DNA of 12,744 bases from the IMG/VR virus record IMGVR_UViG_2660238548_000016. One strand, given 5' to 3'. The DNA is from a virus. Lineage: Duplodnaviria > Heunggongvirae > Uroviricota > Caudoviricetes. The notes beneath the pieces are model-generated. The model was not told the origin of the DNA. It ran no database searches and saw nothing but the letters and a program-made list of their open reading frames with translations. The first letter of the stretch is position 1, and every line of letters begins with the position of its first letter. The position numbers were made by a program, and so were the translations under genes. Shown one piece after another: positions 1 to 10,469 of the stretch.

Positions 1-269
1 GGCTTAAGGAAGCCGGATTACTGGCATCAACAGGGAGTACTGGCGACTCGTATGACAACGCGATGGCTGAGAGCATCAATGGTCTTTACAAAGCGGAGGT
101 AATACACCGTAAGAGCTGGAAAAACCGTGCAGAAGTGGAACTGGCCACACTCACGTGGGTGGACTGGTATAACAATCGACGATTGCTGGAAAGGCTGGGC
201 CATATTCCTCCGGCAGAAGCAGAAAAAGCTTATTATGCTTCCATCGGAAATAATGATCTGGCAGCCTGA
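1..269 (+). CDS. IS3-family transposase (OrfB, integrase-core), C-terminal fragment; 5' end lies outside the window
   Basis: The reading frame is open from base 3 and translates ...GDSYDNAMAESINGLYKAEVIHRKSWKNRAEVELATLTWVDWYNNRRLLERLGHIPPAEAEKAYY..., the characteristic C-terminus of IS3-family DDE transposases (SYDNA.AES glutamate motif, WYN..R.H..LG pattern). Stop at 267-269. Confidence 0.85.
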   Translation, partial: LKEAGLLASTGSTGDSYDNAMAESINGLYKAEVIHRKSWKNRAEVELATLTWVDWYNNRRLLERLGHIPPAEAEKAYYASIGNNDLAA

Positions 270-311: not shown

Positions 312-656
312 CCCCTGCCGTTCGTATGAACGGCGCAAAATCGTGTTGTCGAAGTTGGCTCCATTTCCCCAGACCTGAACAAAAAATTCACCGGAGTTTT
401 CGTCGATAAATTCCCGCAATTGTAACAGTGCATCATCTAACGGGATTTCATCGGTCATAATGGCAGATTGCGCTTCGCGTGATTGCTTAAGCCACCGTTT
501 AATGGTGTCCCGATCAATGACTCCGCCAGCAGTTTCCAGATCGATAGTCTTACTAAATTCCGGTCCCATATCTCCGGTTTGCGGATCGAAAAATATTGCA
601 CCTATTGAGATAATCGGGGCATCAGGATTTTTTCCCATGGTTTTAAGGTCGATCAT
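309..656 (-). CDS. DnaQ-like (DEDD) 3'-5' exonuclease-family protein, C-terminally truncated by the IS insertion; start uncertain (ATG 656, or upstream ATG 806 overlapping the recE-like gene)
   Basis: Translation MIDLKTMGKNPDAPIISIGAIFFDPQTGDMGPEFSKTIDLE...IKRWLKQSREAQSAIM...FVQVWGNGANFDNTILRRSYERQG resembles small phage-encoded DnaQ-like exonucleases. The ORF ends ...ERQG and its stop codon (TGA on the minus strand, bases 311-309) is formed by the terminal TCA of the IS. Confidence 0.5.
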   Translation of the reverse strand: MIDLKTMGKNPDAPIISIGAIFFDPQTGDMGPEFSKTIDLETAGGVIDRDTIKRWLKQSREAQSAIMTDEIPLDDALLQLREFIDENSGEFFVQVWGNGANFDNTILRRSYERQG

Positions 657-712
657 TAGATGGTCACACGTCCTGCTGGTGGATGTGATAACGTGATGAC
701 CGTTCACCGTAA

Positions 713-2530
713 TTAAGGGATTTGCTGTCTCGCCTGTTTCATTATTGCCATTGGCATGTTGATCGCCTTCGGTGCATTGCTTATTCGGGAGCACGGCATT
801 TTCCATTTCCTCCGGATTTTTTTCCGGGCTTCATCCTGGCTTTCTTCGTTGAATGTCTCTTGGTAGGTTGCGTCACCCATTACCGCTCCACAATCAGGGC
901 AGTTGCCGCCATCGGTCTGACCACATGTGGTGCAAACTTTTTCTGGTTCTTGTTGCACTACTGGTTCAGGTTGTTTTGTTTTTGGCTCGTTTTGTAACGC
1001 ATTTGGGCTGTTTTGTTCCGCTTTATCCTGATTCTGGTCATCATCATCGCGACTCTGGATCCCCTTCACCCATTTTGGATCATTCGGGTCGCTAATCCCT
1101 TCAACAAATTCTCCTCGAGAAGCAGCCAGTAATTTATCTGCATCGACAGGATTTTTGGGTGGAATGTTTTTCTTGGCTTCATGGAGTTCTGCACGCAGTT
1201 TCTGATATTTCGCATCAACAGAATTTATCTGTGGCTGAGCATCCATCGACTGCGTGTCCTGATTATGTTCAGTTGTATCCGGTTCCACTGCTTCAGTCGT
1301 TGCCTGTTCATCTGCCATTGCGCCAGATGGCTGCGGTTTTTCTTCATCATCCTGTTTTCCTTCTTTTGTTACACGCTGCGGCATCGGGGCAGAGGAGCGA
1401 CCACAGGCAATATCCACGATTTCCGGATCAGGGGTGGCATGATCGGTTTCAGTCAGCACCTTATTCAGGTATTCGGTGACACGGTGGGGAGTAGCCTCTA
1501 TACCAATTGGTGCTTCTTTCACGGACGCAACCACGATGGCGCGGGAGTAATCCTTGTGGCCCGGCATGGTGATGAATTTGCTGAAAAACACAGAAAATGG
1601 CGGTTTATTTTCAGCGATAATTTCCTCAATGCGTTTAGCGTGCGCGGGATGAAGGTTATAAATATCCACGTCCATTGAACGGGCCAGTACGCCAGTGGCT
1701 ACGTCACGCGCCACTGACGCATCATCGTGGACAAAACCTTCGCCGCGATCGGTAAGAATGCCGCCGCCAGCGTTAGCGCCGGATGGCGTGCGGCTGATGC
1801 GTGAAACACGATTTCCTTTCATCCACTCTTTTGTAAGCAGACCGCGATCGGTGTAGTCAGCGCCCAGGTATGCTTCGATAAAAGAGGTCATCAGTCCCAG
1901 GTCCGAATTTACGGGGGCGGGGAAAACTTTGTCAGTGTCTCGCACCAGTTTGTACAAATCCCGAAGCTCCAGCGGTTCGAGTTGCACTGCTTTATTTGAG
2001 ATGGCCAGCGCGGTAACGGCGGGAAGTTTTTCATCCTGTGCGTTATGTAATGCGCGCAGTTTGTCCAGTGAAACGTGCGTGAGCGGTTTTTCGCTGTTGT
2101 GTTGCGCCAGCCAGCGAACAGGCAGAATCTGACCTGAAACCGGAAGAAGCATATTCTCCTCAATCTTAGCCATGTCTTCGCCGTTGACGTTGGTATTGTC
2201 AGTACTGGCTGGTTTGTCCGGAACAGAGGGCGCGATAAGTATCATTGTGATACCATCTTCTCCGCCTTTTTCGTATCGGTTGCAGAATTCAGTATCAAAC
2301 ACACCTTCCGGTGGAAGGTCATTCACAACGGGTAAATGGACGCGGATGGGTTTTTTAAAATCCTCTTCGTCAAATCCGGCATCGTCCATTGCAGCAACAC
2401 CACGTGATATTGCAACCGATAATTTTTTTGCTGTGCGCCAGTAAAAACCACCTTTAATCCCAAGGCGTTTTCTGACTTTGTCATTTTTGGCTTCGTAATA
2501 TAGTGCAATTTCTTCTTTATCAGCGTTCAT
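713..2530 (-). CDS. RecE (exodeoxyribonuclease VIII)-like protein, N-terminal region only (605 aa); C-terminal nuclease domain absent
   Basis: 605-aa ORF with GAGG 8 nt upstream of the ATG. Long stretches match my recollection of Rac RecE residues about 100-600 ([101 protein letters not shown]). The ORF stops about 25 aa after the zinc-ribbon motif, where RecE would continue into its nuclease domain. Confidence 0.75.
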
Positions 2531-2622
2531 TGATAAACCTCATAACCATTTTAAGGATGAACAAATTCCTGCCATTGCTGGCATTTTTAATCCGTTGGTA
2601 TGGCGTTAATATGGCTGGCGGG

Positions 2623-2811
2623 TTATCCAGCCGGTGTTTCGTTATTCAGGTACAGCGATACTTTTTTTAACGGGAGGCATTCACCGGGGATTTTTTGTTC
2701 GTCCCTTACCTGAATGCAGGATGACTTACTGTAATAAATTCCGGTAATCACATTCTGCGGCTCACCCGTTATAAGAAAAACGGTCATTATCAGTGCAAAC
2801 GCTGAAGTCAC
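2623..2811 (-). CDS. ydfD: YdfD-like small lysis protein (62 aa), Qin-type dicB operon
   Basis: Lies immediately downstream of dicB. GTG start overlaps the dicB stop (GTGA) with GGAG 9 nt upstream. Hydrophobic N-terminus MTSAFALIMTVFLITGEP... matches my memory of Qin YdfD. Confidence 0.6.
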   Translation of the reverse strand: MTSAFALIMTVFLITGEPQNVITGIYYSKSSCIQVRDEQKIPGECLPLKKVSLYLNNETPAG

Positions 2812-2996
2812 TGCTGTTCTCCGATAATACCAAGTTCAAGAAGGGCAATTCTGGAAAGTATGGAATTATCATTAAGAAGATAAGGTTCATATTTTCTCAT
2901 CTTAATGGCATCTTCAGTAAACTCCCGGTTACTGAGCAGAACTCCAATATCAAAACAACCTTCAGACGTATTAACGTTTGGTAATAACGTTTCCAT
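2808..2996 (-). CDS. dicB: DicB cell-division inhibitor (62 aa)
   Basis: Translation from the internal ATG at 2996 is METLLPNVNTSEGCFDIGVLLSNREFTEDAIKMRKYEPYLLN..., close to E. coli DicB. GAGGA lies 8 nt upstream and the gene sits directly downstream of DicF as in Qin. Confidence 0.8.
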   Translation of the reverse strand: METLLPNVNTSEGCFDIGVLLSNREFTEDAIKMRKYEPYLLNDNSILSRIALLELGIIGEQQ

Positions 2997-3165
2997 TATC
3001 GCGTCCTCAACAATGAATTTTGTGATGCAGTGCCTGGTGCCTCCAGGTGACGTTAACCAGTTAACAATTAACGCCGGATACAGAGAATCCACCCATAACA
3101 CTGTTTTTGGTTTTAACTGTTCCGCGTGCGCTTAGCCGCATTCACCGCATCACAAAATTCACTTT

Positions 3166-3223
3166 AAAAAGGGCGGCAGAGCAGTCACGGAGTAAAACTG
3201 ATACCGCCAAATGTCACCAGAAA
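3166..3223 (-). ncRNA. dicF: DicF small regulatory RNA (ftsZ-targeting sRNA of the dicB operon)
   Basis: The minus strand reads TTTCTGGTGACATTTGGCGGTATCAGTTTTACTCCGTGACTGCTCTGCCGCCCTTTTT, which I recognise as DicF, ending in its intrinsic terminator (GC stem plus T run). A 9-bp stem (GGGTTGTCA/TGACAACCC, 3249-3287) sits just upstream on the same transcript, plausibly the processing hairpin. Ends approximate. Confidence 0.8.
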
Positions 3224-3648
3224 ATTGATAACAGAGGGCGTTGTAGCGGGGTTGTCACTTAAGCGTATGGTCAACCTGACAACCCGGTGCATTTTCTGGA
3301 GCAATGGAGGAAACCCCAGCCATACTTACCGCCGCGCCATTTCGCGGACTGCCACAACCGGAAGCGCACGGTCGACGAAAATTTAACGACAGGCTATCTA
3401 TGAACCAGCTACCTCGCCGTACGCTTTCGCGTTGTGTGCCTGCTTTTAACCACGTCAGGCGAGGTGGTTCCTGTTATTCCCCAACAACAAGAAATTTGTA
3501 TAATCTGGATATCCCCAACAACGAGAAGAGTATGTAACGTGATAGTTGAGTTCTCAGCAGCAATGTCGGCAATCAAAGAAACTGCGGTAATGGCAAAGGG
3601 TATTCTGAATGCAAAACTCAAACTGAGATAAATTCCGCTGTCAGCGAT

Positions 3649-3993
3649 ATGCTTTCAAAACTTACGTCTGTTCAGTTTGAATGCGTATCGCTCATTGAGA
3701 TGGTGCGCTCTTATCAGGAAGAAGCCGCATCTCTCAAAGCAAAAATTGCAGAGATAGAAGACTTTCAGCAACAGGCGGAAGGTTACAAACTTAACAAGCT
3801 TGATTCTGGAACTCTTGTGTATTCCAAGAAGCAATTTATAGGCGATACCGAGATAACAGTGCATCTTTGCCCACAATGTTTTGGAAAAAAGGTAATATCT
3901 GTACTGCAACCAATGGAAATAATGCGCTTTGATGCTCATTTTCGTACTTTTTGCCCCGCTTGCAATAATAAGTTCTGGATGAACTCAAGATAA
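3649..3993 (+). CDS. Hypothetical protein with an N-terminal charged/coiled-coil segment and a C-terminal C-x2-C ... C-x2-C zinc ribbon (114 aa); antisense to the dicB operon
   Basis: Clean ORF of protein-like composition (EEAASLKAKIAEIEDFQQQAEGYK ... HLCPQCFGKK ... FCPACNNKF); the overlapping minus-strand ORF looks like antisense junk. No convincing Shine-Dalgarno at the first ATG, so the start and even coding status are uncertain. Confidence 0.4.
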   Translation: MLSKLTSVQFECVSLIEMVRSYQEEAASLKAKIAEIEDFQQQAEGYKLNKLDSGTLVYSKKQFIGDTEITVHLCPQCFGKKVISVLQPMEIMRFDAHFRTFCPACNNKFWMNSR

Positions 3994-4023
3994 TTAACCG
4001 TTTAAATAAGTTGGGACTATCCA

Positions 4024-4067
4024 GATTTTTAAAGAACGTGCCGGATGCTCACCCGTGTCCGGCGCAC
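4024..4067 (-). terminator. Candidate intrinsic terminator or bidirectional hairpin (GTGCCGGA ... TCCGGCGCAC) with a T-rich run on the minus strand
   Basis: Imperfect 8-10 bp GC-rich inverted repeat at 4038-4067, followed on the minus strand by GTTCTTTAAAAAT. Lies downstream of the 79-aa minus-strand gene. Confidence 0.3.
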
Positions 4068-4108
4068 GCACTCCACCTGACCCGTAGAGAACTCCTTAAT
4101 TACCAACC

Positions 4109-4348
4109 TTATCCTCGTTGGTTAGCTATTAACGCGGGTATGTAATCATTCTGGCAATGCTTAATGCCGCTGCTTTTTCCAAATTGGTGATATCCTGCTC
4201 CAGAGCGGACAGATTTTTCAGCCTGCTTAGCCCTGGCTTCATTGGCCCATTTCAGATCCTGCGCTGCATTAATTTTCTGGCGCATCCACTCATAAAGTTC
4301 ATCATCGGTATAGTCTGGCGCGATGATGACGGGTTCTCGTTTATGCAT
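4109..4348 (-). CDS. Small phage protein (79 aa) at the ydfC position of a Qin-type dicB operon
   Basis: ORF with GAGGAA 6 nt upstream of the ATG, in the same orientation and operon position as ydfC. Sequence not recognised beyond context. Confidence 0.55.
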   Translation of the reverse strand: MHKREPVIIAPDYTDDELYEWMRQKINAAQDLKWANEARAKQAEKSVRSGAGYHQFGKSSGIKHCQNDYIPALIANQRG

Positions 4349-4395
4349 ACTGATTCCTCGCGGTGCTGTTTCGCTTATCAGCCGTTAGATTTTGC

Positions 4396-4506
4396 CTAAC
4401 TGGAAAGCGCCTGTTTAAACTCACTGAAGCTGAGAGCCTCTTCGCCTTCGGCAAGGTCTTCGAAGTATTCTTCGTAAGCCTTTTCCATGATTGTGTCGAA
4501 ATCCAT
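4396..4506 (-). CDS. Small acidic protein (36 aa; MDFDTIMEKAYEEYFEDLAEGEEALSFSEFKQALSS), at the ydfB position
   Basis: Found by hand; it is below the ORF-track length cutoff. Its ATG is separated by one base from the upstream gene's stop (TGATATG), which suggests translational coupling. Confidence 0.4.
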   Translation of the reverse strand: MDFDTIMEKAYEEYFEDLAEGEEALSFSEFKQALSS

Positions 4507-4507
4507 A

Positions 4508-4663
4508 TCACTCACCTGAGTTTCTTTCCAGCCAGCGACGGGCACCATTTTCGGTTTTAAACGTTTTGCTTTTGGTATACGTCATCGCGGTGAACGTGCC
4601 GTCCTGGTTTGGGAACACGCCGTACACCAGAGATTCGTTGCTGCCAAGATCGATAGTATCCAT
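4508..4663 (-). CDS. ydfA: YdfA-like DUF1391 protein (51 aa)
   Basis: Translation from the internal ATG at 4663 is MDTIDLGSNESLVYGVFPNQDGTFTAMTYTKSKTFKTENGARRWLERNSGE, matching Qin YdfA as I recall it. GAGG lies 6 nt upstream. First gene of the leftward operon after the repressor. Confidence 0.7.
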   Translation of the reverse strand: MDTIDLGSNESLVYGVFPNQDGTFTAMTYTKSKTFKTENGARRWLERNSGE

Positions 4664-4734
4664 GCTGACCTCATTTCCCCTTAACGCCGGAGTAGCGGAA
4701 CTGTTTGCTGAGAACACCGTGCGGTGTCTTGATG

Positions 4735-4800
4735 AGTGAAATTTAGAATAACCTAAGGCATATGATCAAGATTTTTATGTAGAAAAACCTAAGTTTTTTT
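4735..4800 (-). promoter_or_regulatory. Putative leftward (dicB-operon) promoter with CCTAAGG-type operator repeats
   Basis: ACCTAAGG at 4751-4758 and ACCTAAG at 4787-4793, the same motif found in the dicA/dicC intergenic region. Minus-strand TTGATC and TAAATT-like hexamers lie nearby. Positions approximate. Confidence 0.35.
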
Positions 4801-4865
4801 GGTGTAAAAAACACAAGTGTTTGAAAGTTTGTGCTTTTTATTACAGGGTGTGGAGAAAAAAGGGG

Positions 4866-5273
4866 TTATTTGTTTGCGCTTCTTTTGCGAGCTTTAAGTA
4901 GTTCTTCAAAAAGTTTGTTGAAATTTTCAACTCGAGCACGCATCTCTGACAACAGGGCCTTTTGCTCTGAGTCAGGCAGTGCGTCGAACAGTTGAAGTAA
5001 CTCTTTTTGATCTTCTGTCAGAATGGCTGGCTGATTATTCGGGATCGGTTCGCCTGGTTGTTTATCTTCATCCCCAAAAAGAAGCCAAGTCGGTGAGCAC
5101 TGAAGCGCTTGGCTCAGTGCGAATAATCTTTTCCCCGCCGGCTGTGTTTCATCTCTTTCCCATTGAGAAATTGTTACGTGAGCCACTTTGACCAGCTTAC
5201 CTAATGCGGCCTGAGACAGTTTTAATTTTTTACGCCTATGTAAGAGGCGAGCACCGAAGGTTTCGTTTTTCAT
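4866..5273 (-). CDS. dicA: DicA-like HTH (XRE-family) prophage repressor, 135 aa (CI analog)
   Basis: MKNETFGARLLHRRKKLKLSQAALGKLVKVAHVTISQWERDETQPAGKRLFALSQALQCSPTWLLFGDEDKQP...MRARVENFNKLFEELLKARKR closely matches E. coli DicA. Divergent from the cro-like gene. Confidence 0.9.
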   Translation of the reverse strand: MKNETFGARLLHRRKKLKLSQAALGKLVKVAHVTISQWERDETQPAGKRLFALSQALQCSPTWLLFGDEDKQPGEPIPNNQPAILTEDQKELLQLFDALPDSEQKALLSEMRARVENFNKLFEELLKARKRSANK

Positions 5274-5349
5274 ATTAGGGAATTCTAATTTTTCTTGACT
5301 TAGGTTTCTCTACGATCTAGTTTCCTTAGGAAAATCTAAGGAGCTCGAT
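5274..5349. promoter_or_regulatory. dicA/dicC divergent promoter-operator region
   Basis: TTGACT at 5295-5300; inverted repeat CCTTAGG-aaaat-CTAAGG at 5324-5341 overlapping the dicC Shine-Dalgarno (AAGGAG); additional CTTAGG at 5299-5304 and ATTAGGGAATTCTAAT at 5273-5288. Confidence 0.5.
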
Positions 5350-5577
5350 ATGTTGAAAATTGATGCTATAGCGTTTTTTGGCAGCAAAACAAAGCTTGCC
5401 AATGCCGCAGGAGTTAGGTTGGCAAGCATTGCTGCATGGGGGGAACTGGTTCCTGAAGGTCGCGCGATGCGCCTGCAAGAGGCATCCGGCGGGGAACTTC
5501 AGTACGACCCCAAAGTTTATGACGAATATCGTAAGGCAAAGCGGGCGGGGCGGTTGAACAATGAAAATCACCCCTGA
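5350..5577 (+). CDS. dicC: DicC/YdaS-like Cro-type HTH regulator (75 aa)
   Basis: MLKIDAIAFFGSKTKLANAAGVRLASIAAWGELVPEGRAMRLQEASGGELQYDPKVYDEYRKAKRAGRL matches the DicC/YdaS family. AAGGAG 6 nt upstream; divergent from dicA. Confidence 0.85.
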   Translation: MLKIDAIAFFGSKTKLANAAGVRLASIAAWGELVPEGRAMRLQEASGGELQYDPKVYDEYRKAKRAGRLNNENHP

Positions 5578-6112
5578 ACAGGTTTGTGAGGCTCTGGATG
5601 CCTGGGTATGCCGACCAGGAATGACACAGGAGCAGGCGACGATATTAATCACGGAAGCATTCTGGGCTCTGAAAGAACGCCCGAACATCGATGTTCAACG
5701 CGTCACGTTTGATGATGGCGCGGTTGATCAACGGGCGCTGGGCGTTAACCGGGTGAAGATATTCGAACGCTGGAAATCTATCGACACCAGGGATAAGCGG
5801 GAAAAATTCACGGCGCTGATTCCGGCAATTATGGCGGCTATCCGGATCAGTGATTTCAGGTTGTATCGTGAAATTACTGACGGAAAAAGCATTACGTACA
5901 TGATCGCCGGGTTAAACAAAGAATATGGCGATGTGGTGGAGTCAGGGCTACTTTTTGCGGATCCAGCTGTTGTGGAACGTGAGACTGACGAACTTATAGA
6001 AAAAGCTATTGCTTTCAAGCGTGCGTATCGTCAGCAATACCAACATTACTTTGCAGATAAACAAATATCTGTCTGGGGTTCGTATGAGTATCGATGCGCT
6101 ACGATGGGCTAA
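5561..6112 (+). CDS. YdaT-family protein (183 aa; CII-position regulator or toxin-like protein of Rac/Qin-type prophages)
   Basis: ORF overlaps the dicC stop by 17 nt; position and N-terminal pattern (MKITPEQV...) fit YdaT-like proteins that follow the cro analog. Confidence 0.7.
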   Translation: MKITPEQVCEALDAWVCRPGMTQEQATILITEAFWALKERPNIDVQRVTFDDGAVDQRALGVNRVKIFERWKSIDTRDKREKFTALIPAIMAAIRISDFRLYREITDGKSITYMIAGLNKEYGDVVESGLLFADPAVVERETDELIEKAIAFKRAYRQQYQHYFADKQISVWGSYEYRCATMG

Positions 6113-7124
6113 AAAGGTGAAAACCGGCAGTTCATCCAGTAAGTCAGTATTGACCTGGCTTGCTGATATGTGCGGTGCCGATTTGTGTGCATACCCGTCT
6201 GTATCTGCACTGGCAGAAGTAACGGAACTGAACAAAAAGACTGTGCAGGACAGCTTACGACACCTGATGGAGATTGGGTTAATTGTTGATACCGGTGAGA
6301 GAAAAGGCCGGACAAAACAAATTGTGGTGTACCGACTTATCGGTGTTGAAGAAAGTGTTACCGAGGATGAATACACCCAAAAACGGGAGTCTTTAAAGGT
6401 AGGTAAAATTGGTACTGTTAATAAAAACAGAACCGAAAACGGTTATGTTTCAGCACAAAACAGCCCCAAAAACGGAACTCTTTGCTGCATGGAAAATAAC
6501 CAAAGACACCCAAATTTTCCATCAAAGACACCCAAAAACGGATCACGGAACCCAAAGGAACCCAAAGATTTAAACCCCACACATAACGCACGCGAGAGTG
6601 CTCCGACCAGTGAGCAGGAAGTTTTGTCGTTACAGGCAGTCCCCCCTGTATTCCTGGATGGCCTGAGCGAACCCATCGGAAAATTTCCGATGACCGATAA
6701 CTGGTATCCGTCACGGGATTTTCGACGACGGGCTGCGTTGTGGGGGATGGCTTTGCCGGAGACAGAATTCACACCTGCTGAACTTGCCGCATTCCGGGAC
6801 TACTGGGCAGCGGAGGGGAAAGTGTTTACGCAGGTTCAGTGGGAGCAGAAATTCGCCCGTCACGTAAATCACGTCAGGGCGCAGGTTAAACCAGTCAGCA
6901 AGGGGGTAAACCATGCAGCAGCACCAGGTGGAACCGCATCACGGGCAGTTCAGGAAATTCGGGCAGCACGTGAGCAGTGGGAACGTGAAAACGGATTTAT
7001 CAGCGACGGAAACGGCCTGGAAGCTGTGGGAGCTCATGGGGGAGGTTTATTCGAACCGCTGGACCCAGAAGAACGGGGCCGCACCTTCGAAGCTCTGGAT
7101 TGCACAGATTGGCGCGATGACTGA
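6084..7124 (+). CDS. Replication initiator (lambda O analog): N-terminal winged-helix HTH, C-terminal DnaT-like domain
   Basis: ATG at 6084 (MSIDALRWAKKV...) overlaps the upstream stop. HTH segment ...SVSALAEVTELNKKTVQDSLRHLMEIGLI...; C-terminal DNWYPSRDFRRRAALWGMALPETEFTPAELAAFRDYWAAEGKVF resembles DnaT-like phage replication proteins. Iteron-like repeats lie inside the gene. Confidence 0.75.
   Translation: MSIDALRWAKKVKTGSSSSKSVLTWLADMCGADLCAYPSVSALAEVTELNKKTVQDSLRHLMEIGLIVDTGERKGRTKQIVVYRLIGVEESVTEDEYTQKRESLKVGKIGTVNKNRTENGYVSAQNSPKNGTLCCMENNQRHPNFPSKTPKNGSRNPKEPKDLNPTHNARESAPTSEQEVLSLQAVPPVFLDGLSEPIGKFPMTDNWYPSRDFRRRAALWGMALPETEFTPAELAAFRDYWAAEGKVFTQVQWEQKFARHVNHVRAQVKPVSKGVNHAAAPGGTASRAVQEIRAAREQWERENGFISDGNGLEAVGAHGGGLFEPLDPEERGRTFEALDCTDWRDD
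6370..6570. repeat. Iteron-like direct repeats (putative replication origin) inside the O-like gene
   Basis: CCCAAAAACGG occurs three times (6376-6386, 6465-6475, 6531-6541), with related copies GAACCGAAAACGG (6429-6441), AGACACCCAAA (6505-6515) and GGAACCCAAAGGAACCCAAAG (6547-6567). Confidence 0.45.
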
Positions 7125-7578
7125 GCAGCAAATCCGGCAGGTCTGCCGCCAGTGCATGGACTGCTGCCGGGCGGGTGAAACATGGCCTCCGGACCTGGCT
7201 GAGTTTGTGGCGCTGATTTCGGAAAGCGGGGCCAATCCATTTGGTCTGACGGTGGATGCTGTGATGGAGGAGTACCGCCGCTGGCGCAATGAGTCCTGGC
7301 GATACGACGGAAGTGATAAGTACCCGTGGTCTCAGCCTGTGCTGTATCACATTTGCCTCGAGATGCGTTCAAAGGGGATTGAACGCCAGATGACCGAAGG
7401 GGAGTTAAAACGGCTTGCAGAACGGCAGCTGACGAAATGGGCAAAGCATGTTAGCAACGGCCTGAGTGTTCCGCCTGTCCGGCGACAACTGGCAGCACCC
7501 AAACGTCCTGCGGGACCAACGCCAATTGAGTTGCTGAAACAGGAATATGAACGCCGGAAAGCGGCTGGGTTTGTCTGA
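6913..7578 (+). CDS. Replication protein P-like (helicase loader), 221 aa
   Basis: AGGGGG 6 nt upstream of the ATG at 6913. WKLWELMGEVYSNRW...SKLWIAQIGAMTEQQIRQVCRQ...YPWSQPVLYHICLEMRSKGIERQMTEGELKRLAERQL parallels lambda P (W..A....ITT.EQ.....; YPW.....YWLV......; ...ELRRKAADEL). Overlaps the 3' end of the O-like gene by 212 nt in another frame. Confidence 0.7.
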   Translation: MQQHQVEPHHGQFRKFGQHVSSGNVKTDLSATETAWKLWELMGEVYSNRWTQKNGAAPSKLWIAQIGAMTEQQIRQVCRQCMDCCRAGETWPPDLAEFVALISESGANPFGLTVDAVMEEYRRWRNESWRYDGSDKYPWSQPVLYHICLEMRSKGIERQMTEGELKRLAERQLTKWAKHVSNGLSVPPVRRQLAAPKRPAGPTPIELLKQEYERRKAAGFV

Positions 7579-7610
7579 TTTGAGAAGTAATTTTTACCGG
7601 GAGGAAATTT

Positions 7611-8357
7611 ATGGAGACTGTTTTTGACGCACTGAAAGCGATGGGAAAAGCCACGTCGGTAGAGCTGGCTGCGCGACTTGATATCAGTCGTGAAGAAGTG
7701 CTGAACGAGCTGTGGGAACTGAGAAAGGCTGGCTTCGTTGATAAAAGCGTATACACCTGGCGTGTGGCTTATAACAACGTTCAGCAGGAACAGCCAGCGC
7801 CGGCAGAACTGTCGGAAGAAACCACCACGGCAACAGTCGCTAAAATTTCGGAGTGCGATTTAACTGCGACGGTTGAACAACGCGGACCACAAACGGCTGA
7901 TGAGCTGGCTACGTTGTTCGGTACAACATCACGCAAAGTGGCTTCAACGCTGGCAATGGCAATCAGCAAAGGTCGTCTGATTCGTGTAAACCAGAACGGT
8001 AAATTTCGTTACTGCATGCCGGGCGATAAGTTACCAGCAGAGCCGAAATCCGTGCCGGTAACGGAAAATGATGGTAAAGCCTTTCCTCAGTCAGCAGGTG
8101 TTGCGTTACCAGTACAGGAAGCTGCAACACAGGAAGATATTAAAACAGAAACTGTGGCTGATATTGTGCAATCGTTGCCATCGTTTACTGAAACGCGAGC
8201 GGATGACCTGGTTTTACCATCGCTGCATATGGCAAACCGCGAATTGCGTCGGGCGAAAAGTCATGTCCAGAAGTGGGAGCGAGTCTGCGCCGCGCTGCGG
8301 GAGCTGAACAAGCACCGAGATATGGTTGCCGGGATTTGTCGGAAGTCCGGGCAATGA
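7611..8357 (+). CDS. Phage protein with two tandem winged-helix (MarR-like) N-terminal repeats (DUF1627-like), 248 aa
   Basis: GGGAGG 6-8 nt upstream. Internal duplication: residues about 1-55 and about 85-140 share the pattern (ELA..L.(I/T)SR..V...L.....G.(V/I)), each resembling a winged helix. Confidence 0.65.
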
Positions 8358-8518
8358 GCGGATGGTGCAGGCCTGAAATTATGATACTAACAATGAAGGT
8401 AAAATGCATCGGCAGTCTGATTGGTCGTAGTGAGGCGGCGGTCAGGATGAAAGCCCGGGTTAAGGGAATAAGCCTGATTCTGCGGGGTAATTTTCACCAG
8501 TCAACAAAATATCCGTAG
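8354..8518 (+). CDS. Hypothetical small protein (54 aa), possibly translationally coupled (ATGA overlap)
   Basis: ATG overlaps the stop of the upstream gene; no recognisable family; coding status uncertain. Confidence 0.3.
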
Positions 8519-8555
8519 CGCGATAACGGTCAAAAATCATGGCGCTGACACTTTT

Positions 8556-8798
8556 GTGCCACTGGAGATGACTGTACCTAAGTTCAGGGGAGAAGAACAC
8601 GTCCGGTGGGATGGTCGGGCCAGATTTAAAGGGCAGGTCATGGCTCCAGCCAGTACGCTGGCAATGGAGGCTGCCTGGCTGGAAATTGATATGGGAACCA
8701 CGCCACTCAGGGATTTACTGCCGGTCCAGAGAATAAATTCCTGTTACGGTTACACCACTGTGATCTTGCAAGTGCAGGAAAGTAGGTCTACACGGTAA
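8556..8798 (+). CDS. Hypothetical protein (GTG-initiated 80 aa, or 76 aa from the ATG at 8568)
   Basis: ORF in the operon orientation with no recognisable family and a weak ribosome-binding site. Confidence 0.3.
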   Translation: MPLEMTVPKFRGEEHVRWDGRARFKGQVMAPASTLAMEAAWLEIDMGTTPLRDLLPVQRINSCYGYTTVILQVQESRSTR

Positions 8799-9026
8799 CG
8801 CGAGTGCGTGTAACTTTTGATGTTATTTCCGTAGAAACACCGGACAAATTTTCGCTGGCAGGTCATGCTGAAGGTATAAATCTGCAGATTATGGACAATT
8901 ACGGATATCCGGCAAGAGCCGGAAAAAGCATGCCGCCTCTAATTCTCAGTGGAAGATGGACTTGATTATACTCATTGCATTGTCAGAAATAGTTATCCAT
9001 TAAAGGCTGGCTATTCCAAACAGGAT

Positions 9027-9050
9027 GTTGATTACAAAAATGTAATCAAC
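9027..9050. promoter_or_regulatory. Perfect 24-bp palindrome GTTGATTACA-AAAA-TGTAATCAAC (candidate operator) upstream of the binding-protein moron, with TATAAT at 9079-9084
   Basis: 10-bp perfect inverted-repeat arms separated by 4 bp, about 30 bp upstream of a consensus -10 hexamer and about 170 bp upstream of the ATG at 9217, in a strongly AT-rich intergenic region. Confidence 0.35.
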
Positions 9051-9216
9051 ATGTAAGGTTTATACTCTTCAATATGCGTATAATTTTCCTTATTTTGTTA
9101 ACTTTAAATAACAAGCTATGCACGAGGTAAAGTCGGATAAGTTTATCTGGATGTAATATATATTATTTGTAGTGTTTATAACTTTATTTCATGATAACCA
9201 ATAAAAGGAGTTTTTT

Positions 9217-9975
9217 ATGAGGAACATAATGGCAGGTTTTTTAATATTCCTGTCTTCTGCTGCTTATGCTGATATCAATCTGTATGGTCCTGGTGGCCCG
9301 CATACAGCCTTGCTTGATGCAGCCAAACTTTATGCCGAAAAAACAGGTATTATAGTGAACGTTCATTACGGCCCACAGAACAAATGGAATGAAGATGCCA
9401 AAAAAAATGCAGATATCTTGTTTGGCGCATCAGAACAATCTGCTCTGGCTATCATTCGGGACCATAAAGACAGCTTCAGTGAAAAAGATATTCAGCCTCT
9501 TTATCTGCGAAAAAGTATTTTACTGGTAAAGAAAGGTAATCCTAAAAATATCCGGAGTATTGACGACCTGACCAGACCCGGGATTGGCGTAATTGTTAAT
9601 GATGGTGGTGGTACCAGTAATACATCAGGCACTGGCGTCTGGGAAGATATTGCCGGACGTAAAGGGAATATAGAAACTGTCGCCGCAATCCGAAAAAATA
9701 TTATTTTATATGCGCCCAATAGCGGAACTGCACGTAAGGCTCTTGAGAATCAGCCTGAAGCAGATGTCTGGATAACCTGGGCTGACTGGGCAGCCAGTAA
9801 TCCAGAAATTGGTGATGTCGTGGAAATAGCGCCAGACTACGTGATATGGCGTGATATGAACATTACAGTACGTCAGGATGCAAATGATGAAACCCGTCGA
9901 TTTGCAGAATGGCTACAAACCGATGAAGCGGCGCCTGCATTCAAAAAATATGGCTGGACCAGGAAAGGCACTTGA
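9217..9975 (+). CDS. Secreted periplasmic substrate-binding protein, ModA-like (molybdate/tungstate-binding fold); orphan with no transporter partners in the window
   Basis: AAGGAG 7 nt upstream; signal peptide MRNIMAGFLIFLSSAAYA. ModA-like landmarks: ADILFGASEQS, LLVKKGNPKNIRSIDDLTRPGIGVIVND, C-terminal AFKKYGW. AT-rich codon usage unlike the neighbours. Confidence 0.8.
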   Translation: MRNIMAGFLIFLSSAAYADINLYGPGGPHTALLDAAKLYAEKTGIIVNVHYGPQNKWNEDAKKNADILFGASEQSALAIIRDHKDSFSEKDIQPLYLRKSILLVKKGNPKNIRSIDDLTRPGIGVIVNDGGGTSNTSGTGVWEDIAGRKGNIETVAAIRKNIILYAPNSGTARKALENQPEADVWITWADWAASNPEIGDVVEIAPDYVIWRDMNITVRQDANDETRRFAEWLQTDEAAPAFKKYGWTRKGT

Positions 9976-9981
9976 CATCCT

Positions 9982-10010
9982 CCACGTCCTTCAGGACGTG
10001 GATTCTTTTT
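9982..10010 (+). terminator. Rho-independent terminator after the binding-protein gene
   Basis: CCACGTCC-TTCA-GGACGTGG stem-loop followed by ATTCTTTTT. Confidence 0.7.
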
Positions 10011-10132
10011 CCGGATGCCGCGCCAGCGGCATGTAGGGGCAGCTCACAAAACGGAAAAAATTGTACGCTAAGCCTCGCCAGGTGAACTGAATTCATTCCG
10101 ATATGGGAATTCCCATATCGGACGAAAACGGC

Positions 10133-10160
10133 TTGCTGTAACGGCAGAGTTAAGTAGAAT
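10133..10160 (+). promoter_or_regulatory. Putative hok mRNA promoter (-35 TTGCTG, 16-bp spacer, -10 TAGAAT)
   Basis: Hexamers sit just upstream of GGTGCTTGAGGCTATCTGCCTC (10168 onward), which resembles the 5' end of the plasmid R1 hok mRNA as I recall it. Confidence 0.4.
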
Positions 10161-10167
10161 TGCTGCG

Positions 10168-10230
10168 GGTGCTTGAGGCTATCTGCCTCGGGCATGAACA
10201 CCAACGGCAGATAGATAAAAGCCCCACCCG
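10168..10230 (-). ncRNA. sok: Sok-like antisense RNA (antitoxin of the hok/mok system); boundaries approximate
   Basis: By analogy with R1 hok/sok, the antisense RNA should be complementary to the hok mRNA 5' leader. The minus strand here contains CUAUCUGCC...GGCAGAUAG followed by CCUCAAGCACC, the same architecture as the R1 Sok 3' region. Promoter not confidently located. Confidence 0.4.
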
Positions 10231-10256
10231 ACTATAAATCGAAGTGAGGCCCCTAT

Positions 10257-10469
10257 ATGCTCGTCACATATAGATTGCCTCTTACGGACCGAAAGGTCAA
10301 GGAGAAGCAGGCTATGAAGCAGCAAAAGGCGATGTTAATCGCCCTGATCGTCATCTGTTTAACCGTCATAGTGACGGCACTGGTAACGAGGAAAGACCTC
10401 TGCGAGGTACGAATCCGAACCGGCCAGACGGAGGTCGCTGTCTTCACAGCTTACGAACCTGAGGAGTAA
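10257..10469 (+). CDS. Mok-like overlapping reading frame (in-frame N-terminal extension of hok, 70 aa)
   Basis: In-frame upstream start sharing the hok stop codon, as mokC shares its stop with hokC in E. coli. Confidence 0.45.
   Translation: MLVTYRLPLTDRKVKEKQAMKQQKAMLIALIVICLTVIVTALVTRKDLCEVRIRTGQTEVAVFTAYEPEE
10314..10469 (+). CDS. hok: Hok/Gef-family type I toxin (51 aa membrane peptide)
   Basis: MKQQKAMLIALIVICLTVIVTALVTRKDLCEVRIRTGQTEVAVFTAYEPEE is near-identical in pattern to Gef/HokC; AAGGAGAAG lies upstream of the ATG. Confidence 0.85.
   Translation: MKQQKAMLIALIVICLTVIVTALVTRKDLCEVRIRTGQTEVAVFTAYEPEE

Follow-up and report, generated by a model that had tools for sequence, protein, structure and literature searches.

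Between ydfC and the DicF small RNA, the dicB operon of a Qin-like Escherichia coli prophage harbors a module (3448-4037) that is probably a one-gene Rip1-family prophage moron, present in this copy as what is most likely an inactivated defence gene. Sequence profiles and a predicted fold assign the gene at 3539-3993 to the Rip1 ('ring interacting pore 1') family. The copy in the window is a disrupted member of an already known defence family.

The account of Rip1 used here is that of the review PMC13434031, with the primary description in Patel, McCarthy, Taylor et al., Nature 651:1060 (2026). As presented in the review, Rip1 is a prophage protein that is non-toxic by itself, and its homologues are widespread among proteobacterial prophages. 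By cryo-EM, an 11-mer ring of small terminase is encircled by 12 Rip1 monomers, whose N-terminal amphipathic helix forms the pore and whose C-terminal half touches the ring; the outcome is premature lysis (PMC13434031). Phages that escape carry portal mutations in the case of Pseudomonas phages and small terminase mutations in the case of E. coli phages (PMC13434031). A second source also lists Rip1 as sensing the small terminase subunit (PMC13601566).

The dicB operon and the inserted module

The window, that is the whole stretch of 12,744 nucleotides that was analysed, is a lambdoid Qin-like E. coli prophage. Strain 2011C-4251, in which the prophage adjoins rspB, matches positions 312-10401 at 99.96% identity. 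The dicB operon lies on the minus strand in the order dicA-type repressor, ydfA, ydfB-like, ydfC-like, DicF, dicB, DUF1482 and exonuclease. The operon, its backbone elements and the insert are laid out as follows.

4866-5273, minus strand: dicA-type repressor of the operon
4508-4717, minus strand: ydfA (DUF1391) of the operon
Between ydfA and the ydfC-like ORF in operon order: ydfB-like ORF
4109-4348, minus strand: ydfC-like gene, marked 'frameshifted' in RefSeq at the identical locus
About 4038-4067: stable hairpin (dG -19.8 kcal/mol) of the operon backbone, found in K-12-type loci
3448-4037: inserted module, 590 bp, delimited by BLAST blocks against the K-12-type locus L002 and by the junction sequences
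3250-3258 and 3279-3287 (element 3249-3287): 9-bp stem GGGTTGTCA/TGACAACCC, upstream of DicF
3171-3222, minus strand: DicF sRNA (Rfam RF00039, 77 bits, E=5.7e-16)
After DicF, minus strand: dicB (Pfam DicB, E=1.7e-37)
After dicB, minus strand: DUF1482 gene, then exonuclease gene

DicF passes the gathering score of RF00039 (77 bits against 48) over its full length (1-52), and a permissive Rfam scan of 3100-4400 returned no other RNA family. The distance from the ydfC-position ORF to DicF, estimated at about 885 bp in an earlier sequence-only reading of this DNA, measures 886 bp. The same reading had placed ydfC close to DicF in Qin, which is wrong, as about 340 bp already lie between them in the K-12-type locus, and its figure of about 0.9 kb of extra DNA is reduced to 590 bp by alignment with that locus. 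Window 2885-3447 corresponds to 2786-3344 and window 4038-4720 to 3374-4055 of L002, so that only 3448-4037 is extra; these blocks bear out the proposed insertion relative to K-12 Qin. The K-12-type dicB operon has ∼29 unrelated bp where the module sits, and the corresponding module in FORC_082 and UMNF18 measures 591 bp. Within the module, the rip1-like gene is preceded by a promoter-like region and followed by a 44-bp tail; the module is AT-rich, as had been described, with a GC content of 40% compared with 48% for the window. A search of the insert junctions for flanking direct repeats or recombination scars found none. A 13-nt inverted repeat (85% complementary; 3411-3423 and 3453-3465) straddles the left junction.

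The right junction of the insert lies directly beside the hairpin at 4038-4067. This hairpin and the 9-bp stem had been taken to flank the extra segment; both exist as described, but both are common to K-12, 33F4 and Eco889. The stem (3249-3287) does not vary between the K-12-like, 33F4 and Eco889 loci, which also carry the hairpin; as judged by these comparisons, both are backbone of the DicF precursor region and not cargo flanks. In K-12, transcription of the dicB operon continues into dicF and dicB. Since K-12 has the identical hairpin and reads through it, the hairpin alone is poor evidence of a transcription stop, and the suggestion that it would stop leftward transcription cannot be assumed. 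The minus-strand sequence 3' of the hairpin in the window (GTTCTTTAAAAATC) is U-richer than that of K-12, and a terminator scan made no call at 4038-4067 with GTTCTTTAAAAATC.

Several other features of the window accompany this segment. The ydfC-like gene (4109-4348, minus strand) is a 79-aa ORF against 72 aa and is a pseudogene in RefSeq. A second cargo site adjoins ydfC (∼4090-4108), with counterparts at 3445-4015 in locus L003, 3410-3775 in L004 and 3731-4579 in L012; its cargo in other prophages consists of operon-strand phrog_6937 or phrog_2151 genes, in which the first ∼55 residues are common and the remainder diverges, and the site also occurs with an unrelated small plus-strand ORF. 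At the left end, positions 1-311 are not collinear with strain 2011C-4251 and include an ORF (63-269, plus strand) that by eye resembles the C-terminus of an IS3-family transposase and abuts the exonuclease gene, which itself consists of two minus-strand ORFs, 309-806 and 713-2530, that overlap instead of a single frame. Further to the right, a Paa (AcfC-family) adhesin gene at 9217-9975 (plus strand) is a virulence moron of the prophage, preceded by a fimbrial gene that is frameshifted in the matching record. Rfam places a sok antitoxin RNA at 10167-10316 (plus strand, 104 bits), where it overlaps the Hok-type toxin ORF 10257-10469, which is hokD in the matching record.

Family membership and the broken reading frame

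The elements of the gene itself and of the region upstream of it, all on the plus strand, are listed below.

3539-3993: full extent of the rip1-family gene, from intact 151-aa annotations, alignment A1, the PDB 9oox match and the fold match
3539-3631: 5' fragment, from the translation, the hydrophobicity profile and homologue N-termini
3612-3613: site of the 1-bp deletion, from alignment A1 and match spans of 455 against 456 bp
3649-3993: 114-aa ORF (WP_001399959.1, a hypothetical protein in RefSeq), residues 38-151 of the intact protein
3499-3504: TATAAT, candidate -10 box of a putative promoter for this gene, from alignment A1
3478-3493 and 3512-3527: two copies of a 16-nt direct repeat, TCCCCAACAAC[A/G]AGAA, flanking TATAAT

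Assignment to the family relies on a profile built from 56 homologues, with 253 homologous protein clusters found. The profile matches one solved structure, chain L of PDB entry 9oox, which is Rip1 (E=7.9e-20, profile 6-152, chain residues 16-160), and the entry is titled as Escherichia phage HK446 Rip1 complexed with Enterobacteria phage T6 small terminase. The window ORF alone matches Rip1 residues 49-155 (E=4.9e-6), and BLASTP of an intact allele against HK446 Rip1 gives E=1e-10 with 23% identity over 141 aa. An AlphaFold2 model, made from a 99%-identical intact allele and not from the window copy, has pLDDT means of 74-92 in every 10-residue block past residue 40 and predicts helices H34-63 and H68-120 followed by a beta-rich Cys4 domain at 124-190. 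A Foldseek search of the PDB with this model gave significant matches to 9oox_L and 9oox_M alone (probability 1.00, E about 1e-6, TM(target) 0.53-0.74), and the predicted fold of the intact allele has the helical N-half and compact C-domain of Rip1.

Conserved residues point in the same direction. The four cysteines are all invariant among 19 aligned sequences, HkaP and JBD30 gp30 included; with 56 sequences aligned, three remain invariant and the fourth is conserved to at least 90%. Conservation extends to the GY-L...G-VY and LQP motifs. The first 26 residues form the most hydrophobic stretch of both the intact allele and HK446 Rip1. The N-terminal hydrophobic moments (muH), 0.33-0.42 in both proteins, are not decisive either way.

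The sequence-only reading had described a coiled-coil-like N-terminus and a Cys4 motif, which agrees with the model, and had left the protein unrecognised, a view overturned by the profile and structure-prediction checks, which lead to Rip1, a family named and mechanistically described in 2026. Its guess of an exclusion or defence moron was right in kind, given the Rip1 family of PDB 9oox, but concerns a copy that is frameshifted and probably dead. Pfam, NCBIfam and PADLOC-DB 2023, all of which predate Rip1, hold no significant family for the 114-aa ORF; among named zinc-ribbon Pfam families (DnaJ_CXXCXGXG, Zn_ribbon_19, TFIIB-type and others) the best score was 15.8 bits against a cut-off of 32.7, and SieB or any other exclusion family is absent among the Pfam, PHROGs, NCBIfam and PADLOC matches. 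The JGI label 'predicted nuclease with TOPRIM domain', carried by two homologues, lacks Pfam, NCBIfam or structural support and was probably produced by the coiled coil as an artefact. Also set aside was Zip, a Sie protein that interacts with PilZ and is a different gene (JBD26/JBD24 gp58).

The intact form of the gene is annotated with 151 aa at the equivalent place in FORC_082 (WP_001546009) and UMNF18 (WP_000559912). These annotations, the homologue N-termini and alignment A1 together indicate that the gene extends from GTG 3539, the start codon, to 3993, and GAGAAGAG is present ∼9 nt upstream of the GTG. The gene has 455 nt in the window and 456 nt (151 codons and the stop) in intact alleles. 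In the DNA alignment A1 the deletion site reads AATGCCAAAACT in FORC_082 and AATG-CAAAACT in the window. The resulting 5' fragment comprises the GTG start, 26 native codons, 4 out-of-frame codons and a TAA at 3629-3631, with a predicted 30-aa product, VIVEFSAAMSAIKETAVMAKGILNAKLKLR. This upstream frame-2 ORF, ending in ...VIVEFSAAMSAIKETAVMAKGILNAKLKLR*, agrees with the N-termini of homologues (MIAELSAAMTAIKETA...).

The 114-aa ORF had been reported as a plus-strand ORF antisense to the operon with a C-x2-C ... C-x2-C arrangement, all of which is borne out in the sequence. It had also been called clean, whereas it represents residues 38-151 of a 151-aa gene broken by the deletion at 3612/3613, and holds the second part of the helical region together with the beta-rich Cys4 C-terminal domain. 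The ORF matches phrog_1244 of PHROGs (E=3.5e-38) at profile positions 39-147 of 157; intact homologues match the same profile from position 4-5, compared with 39 for the window ORF. No Shine-Dalgarno sequence is present upstream of ATG 3649. The counterparts of the Rip1 pore helix and sensor share one chain in the intact FORC_082 and UMNF18 alleles; in the window they do not, as the 114-aa ORF begins at Rip1 residue 48-49. With both the rip1-family gene and the ydfC-like gene broken, two neighboring genes of this operon segment carry frameshifts.

Alleles, expression and the state of this copy

The frameshift allele is found in 17 complete E. coli genomes, 12 of which, including O103:H2 12009, O45:H2 FWSEC0003 and UTAK strains, carry it at 100% identity. 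In the other five (H175-H179: O103, O103:H2, O121 and strain UTAK-14), the gene is truncated further at window position 3906. Because of the 12 identical and the five further-truncated copies, the frameshift is a real allele and not a sequencing error. A near-identical intact 456-bp version is present in seven genomes, and relatives of the rip1-like gene are detectable at the DNA level in 734 of 5,426 complete E. coli genomes. Most carriers have 2-3 related loci per genome. As the O103:H2/O45:H2-type allele is frameshifted, counts of gene presence would overstate the defence repertoire of these strains.

The ydfC-DicF site is reused by alleles that are only ∼60-85% identical. Identities in the N-half and the C-half are uncorrelated between alleles (r=0.01 over 1,540 pairs of alignment A3), as exemplified by pairs with N/C identities of 0.97/0.45 and 0.44/0.99; the gap between the two halves reaches at least 0.4 in 106 of the 1,540 pairs. 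An apparent crossover lies near the invariant LKAKIAE motif (∼3750). These patterns suggest that Rip1-family alleles are mosaics in which pore and sensor modules have been shuffled.

Upstream of the gene, the 109 bp at 3430-3538 stay 95-96% identical even between alleles that share no more than 60% identity in the N-half coding DNA. The TATAAT at 3499-3504 is conserved in E. coli alleles, with a poor -35, and the 16-nt direct repeat pair around it is conserved in all alleles. A strict sigma-70 scan of 3100-4400 returned no promoter; we infer that the rip1-like gene may have its own promoter, for which TATAAT is a candidate -10 box. The extended -10-like element reported earlier, TGTATAAT, exists, at 3497-3504 instead of 3496-3503. 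The 16-nt repeat region could be a regulatory site. The apparent free recombination of pore and sensor halves between alleles and the near-invariance of the putative promoter region are relevant to the diversification of Rip1 specificity and to the regulation of the gene.

In all contexts examined, namely the window, HK446, HK620, HK630, JBD30 and E. coli and Citrobacter prophages, Rip1-family genes are oriented against the operon around them. The homologues in PhiR49_1 and the Citrobacter prophage are located between early-left genes and cI, and that of E. coli P0078 between dicB and ydfA, again on the opposite strand. The antisense placement within a repressor-controlled operon, as noted at the outset for this plus-strand gene in the minus-strand dicB operon, is confirmed. 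The dicB operon corresponds to pL, so that the arrangement seen in the window is the one standard for Rip1, here between ydfC and DicF. Convergent pL-type transcription would be expected to silence the rip1-like gene during induction. The ydfC-DicF interval of the dicB/pL operon emerges as a recurrent site for a Rip1-type defence gene, always convergent with the operon.

By analogy with Rip1, the intact 151-aa protein would be harmless alone; in the lysogen it would be expressed from a promoter of its own, with the opposing operon held silent by the DicA-type repressor. Late in infection by another phage, a ring-shaped small terminase or portal would appear and be bound by the C-terminal Cys4 beta domain. 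A ring of the protein would then assemble around the phage ring, its N-terminal hydrophobic helices would form a membrane pore, and the cell would be killed before progeny mature. A Rip1-like mechanism for the enterobacterial subfamily of the window is thus an extrapolation from Rip1 and may hold for its intact members. In the window copy, the deletion at 3612/3613 parts the first 26 codons from the rest and leaves the 114-aa ORF as a downstream remnant. As Rip1 needs sensor and pore on one chain, the frameshifted copy is most likely inactive as a defence; the detachment of 26 codons and the absence of a ribosome-binding site for the 114-aa ORF likewise make inactivation the most likely state. 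The defence function has probably been lost in this copy. The 100% identical allele in an STEC-type clade, together with the intact C-terminal ORF, is compatible with a recent inactivation and falls short of proving loss of function.

Other readings of the same locus give the fragments a function. The 114-aa C-terminal fragment might be expressed, for example by reinitiation, with a sensor-only role of its own, either binding or inhibiting the rings of small terminase or portal without lysis, or serving as a decoy that would dampen paralogous Rip1 copies of the same genome. In its favor, 12 genomes have the ORF uninterrupted and at 100% identity, it retains the entire C-terminal domain, which in Rip1 touches the terminase ring, most carriers have 2-3 related loci per genome, and the ORF begins only 17 nt after the upstream TAA. 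We nevertheless regard this as unlikely, given that ATG 3649 has no Shine-Dalgarno sequence ahead of it, that identity within a narrow clade is expected of a recent mutation and is silent on selection, that 5 of the 17 copies are truncated further at 3906 in a manner resembling ongoing decay, and that the adjoining ydfC is frameshifted as well. It is quite unlikely that the fragment, perhaps with the 30-aa hydrophobic peptide, acts as a modulator, either a decoy or antidote that would shield the resident prophages of an STEC genome from the paralogous Rip1 copies it carries, or a non-lytic inhibitor of the terminase ring. If true, this would represent a split, neofunctionalised pore-forming defence.

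Some full-length protein could also be made, through a -1 slip of tRNA-Lys on A-AAA (3613-3616) or through transcriptional slippage, which would leave a working Rip1 at low expression. The deletion does precede an A4 run on which a -1 shift of AAA re-pairs perfectly, and the shift yields exactly the native downstream sequence (...NAK-TQTE...). A run of A4 is short for efficient slippage, however; there is no canonical X-XXY-YYZ heptamer and no stimulatory structure was found, the sole nearby terminator-like stem (3635-3647) being on the minus strand, and intact alleles require no shift. A functional product by this route is very unlikely. The earlier picture of an intact, new exclusion or defence gene on a ∼0.9 kb insert bounded by its own hairpins drew on a real insertion, antisense orientation and AT-richness and on the lack of a Pfam, NCBIfam or PADLOC 2023 match; with the family being Rip1, the insert 590 bp, the hairpins backbone and the ORF a fragment, that picture is highly improbable and in its details refuted. 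A chance ORF in the non-coding spacer of a DicF precursor is likewise refuted: that the 114-aa ORF lacks a strict promoter or RBS would fit it, but the 253 homologous protein clusters, the solved homologue and the confident fold would not.

Relation to known Rip1 proteins and other prophage defences

These observations leave the known picture of the Rip1 family unchanged. They are of use for naming, as phrog_1244 and HkaP can both be labelled Rip1-family and hundreds of 'hypothetical' E. coli prophage genes become nameable. The closest characterised relative for comparison is HK446 Rip1 (gp37, YP_007111990), to which the window gene is homologous over nearly its full length (profile E=8e-20). 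Both proteins have a predicted long helical N-half and a predicted beta-rich Cys4 C-domain, and both are encoded by a single gene on the opposite strand within a lambdoid early-left (pL-type) operon. They are similar in size (151 aa in the intact alleles of the window gene and 164 aa in HK446 Rip1) and differ in site, the HK446 gene lying between N and cIII/anti-restriction and the window gene between ydfC and DicF. The identity of the window gene product to HK446 Rip1 is only 22-23%, and the window copy, unlike HK446 Rip1, is frameshifted with its N-terminal segment detached.

Two further sets of relatives extend the comparison. HkaP of HK620 and HK630, annotated as 'putative superinfection exclusion protein', belongs to the window family with ∼33% identity over 108 aa; its gene lies between N/hkaQ and cIII on the antisense strand of the pL operon, and in contrast with the window copy it is intact and encodes 164 aa. 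The exclusion annotation of HkaP appears to be positional only. The moron of Pseudomonas aeruginosa Mu-like prophages (JBD30 gp30, DMS3, D3112 orf25) is homologous to the window ORF (tblastn E=5e-7) and to HK446 Rip1 (tblastn ∼1e-17). In JBD30, this distant homologue, gp30, is a single prophage-expressed gene that sits between the terminase genes and runs opposite to its flanking operon; it was previously counted among defence morons.

The Tab/anti-Tab system of JBD26 resembles Rip1 in that Tab is a small, prophage-expressed defence gene on the opposite strand with its own promoter (PMC10884400). Tab occupies the slot that Rip1 holds in JBD30, and its target is likewise virion morphogenesis (PMC10884400). 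The slot is common to both, but the proteins are unrelated, and Tab was hence rejected as a relative of the window gene. With 83 aa, Tab blocks tail assembly via the tape-measure protein, has an antidote partner and forms no pore (PMC10884400).
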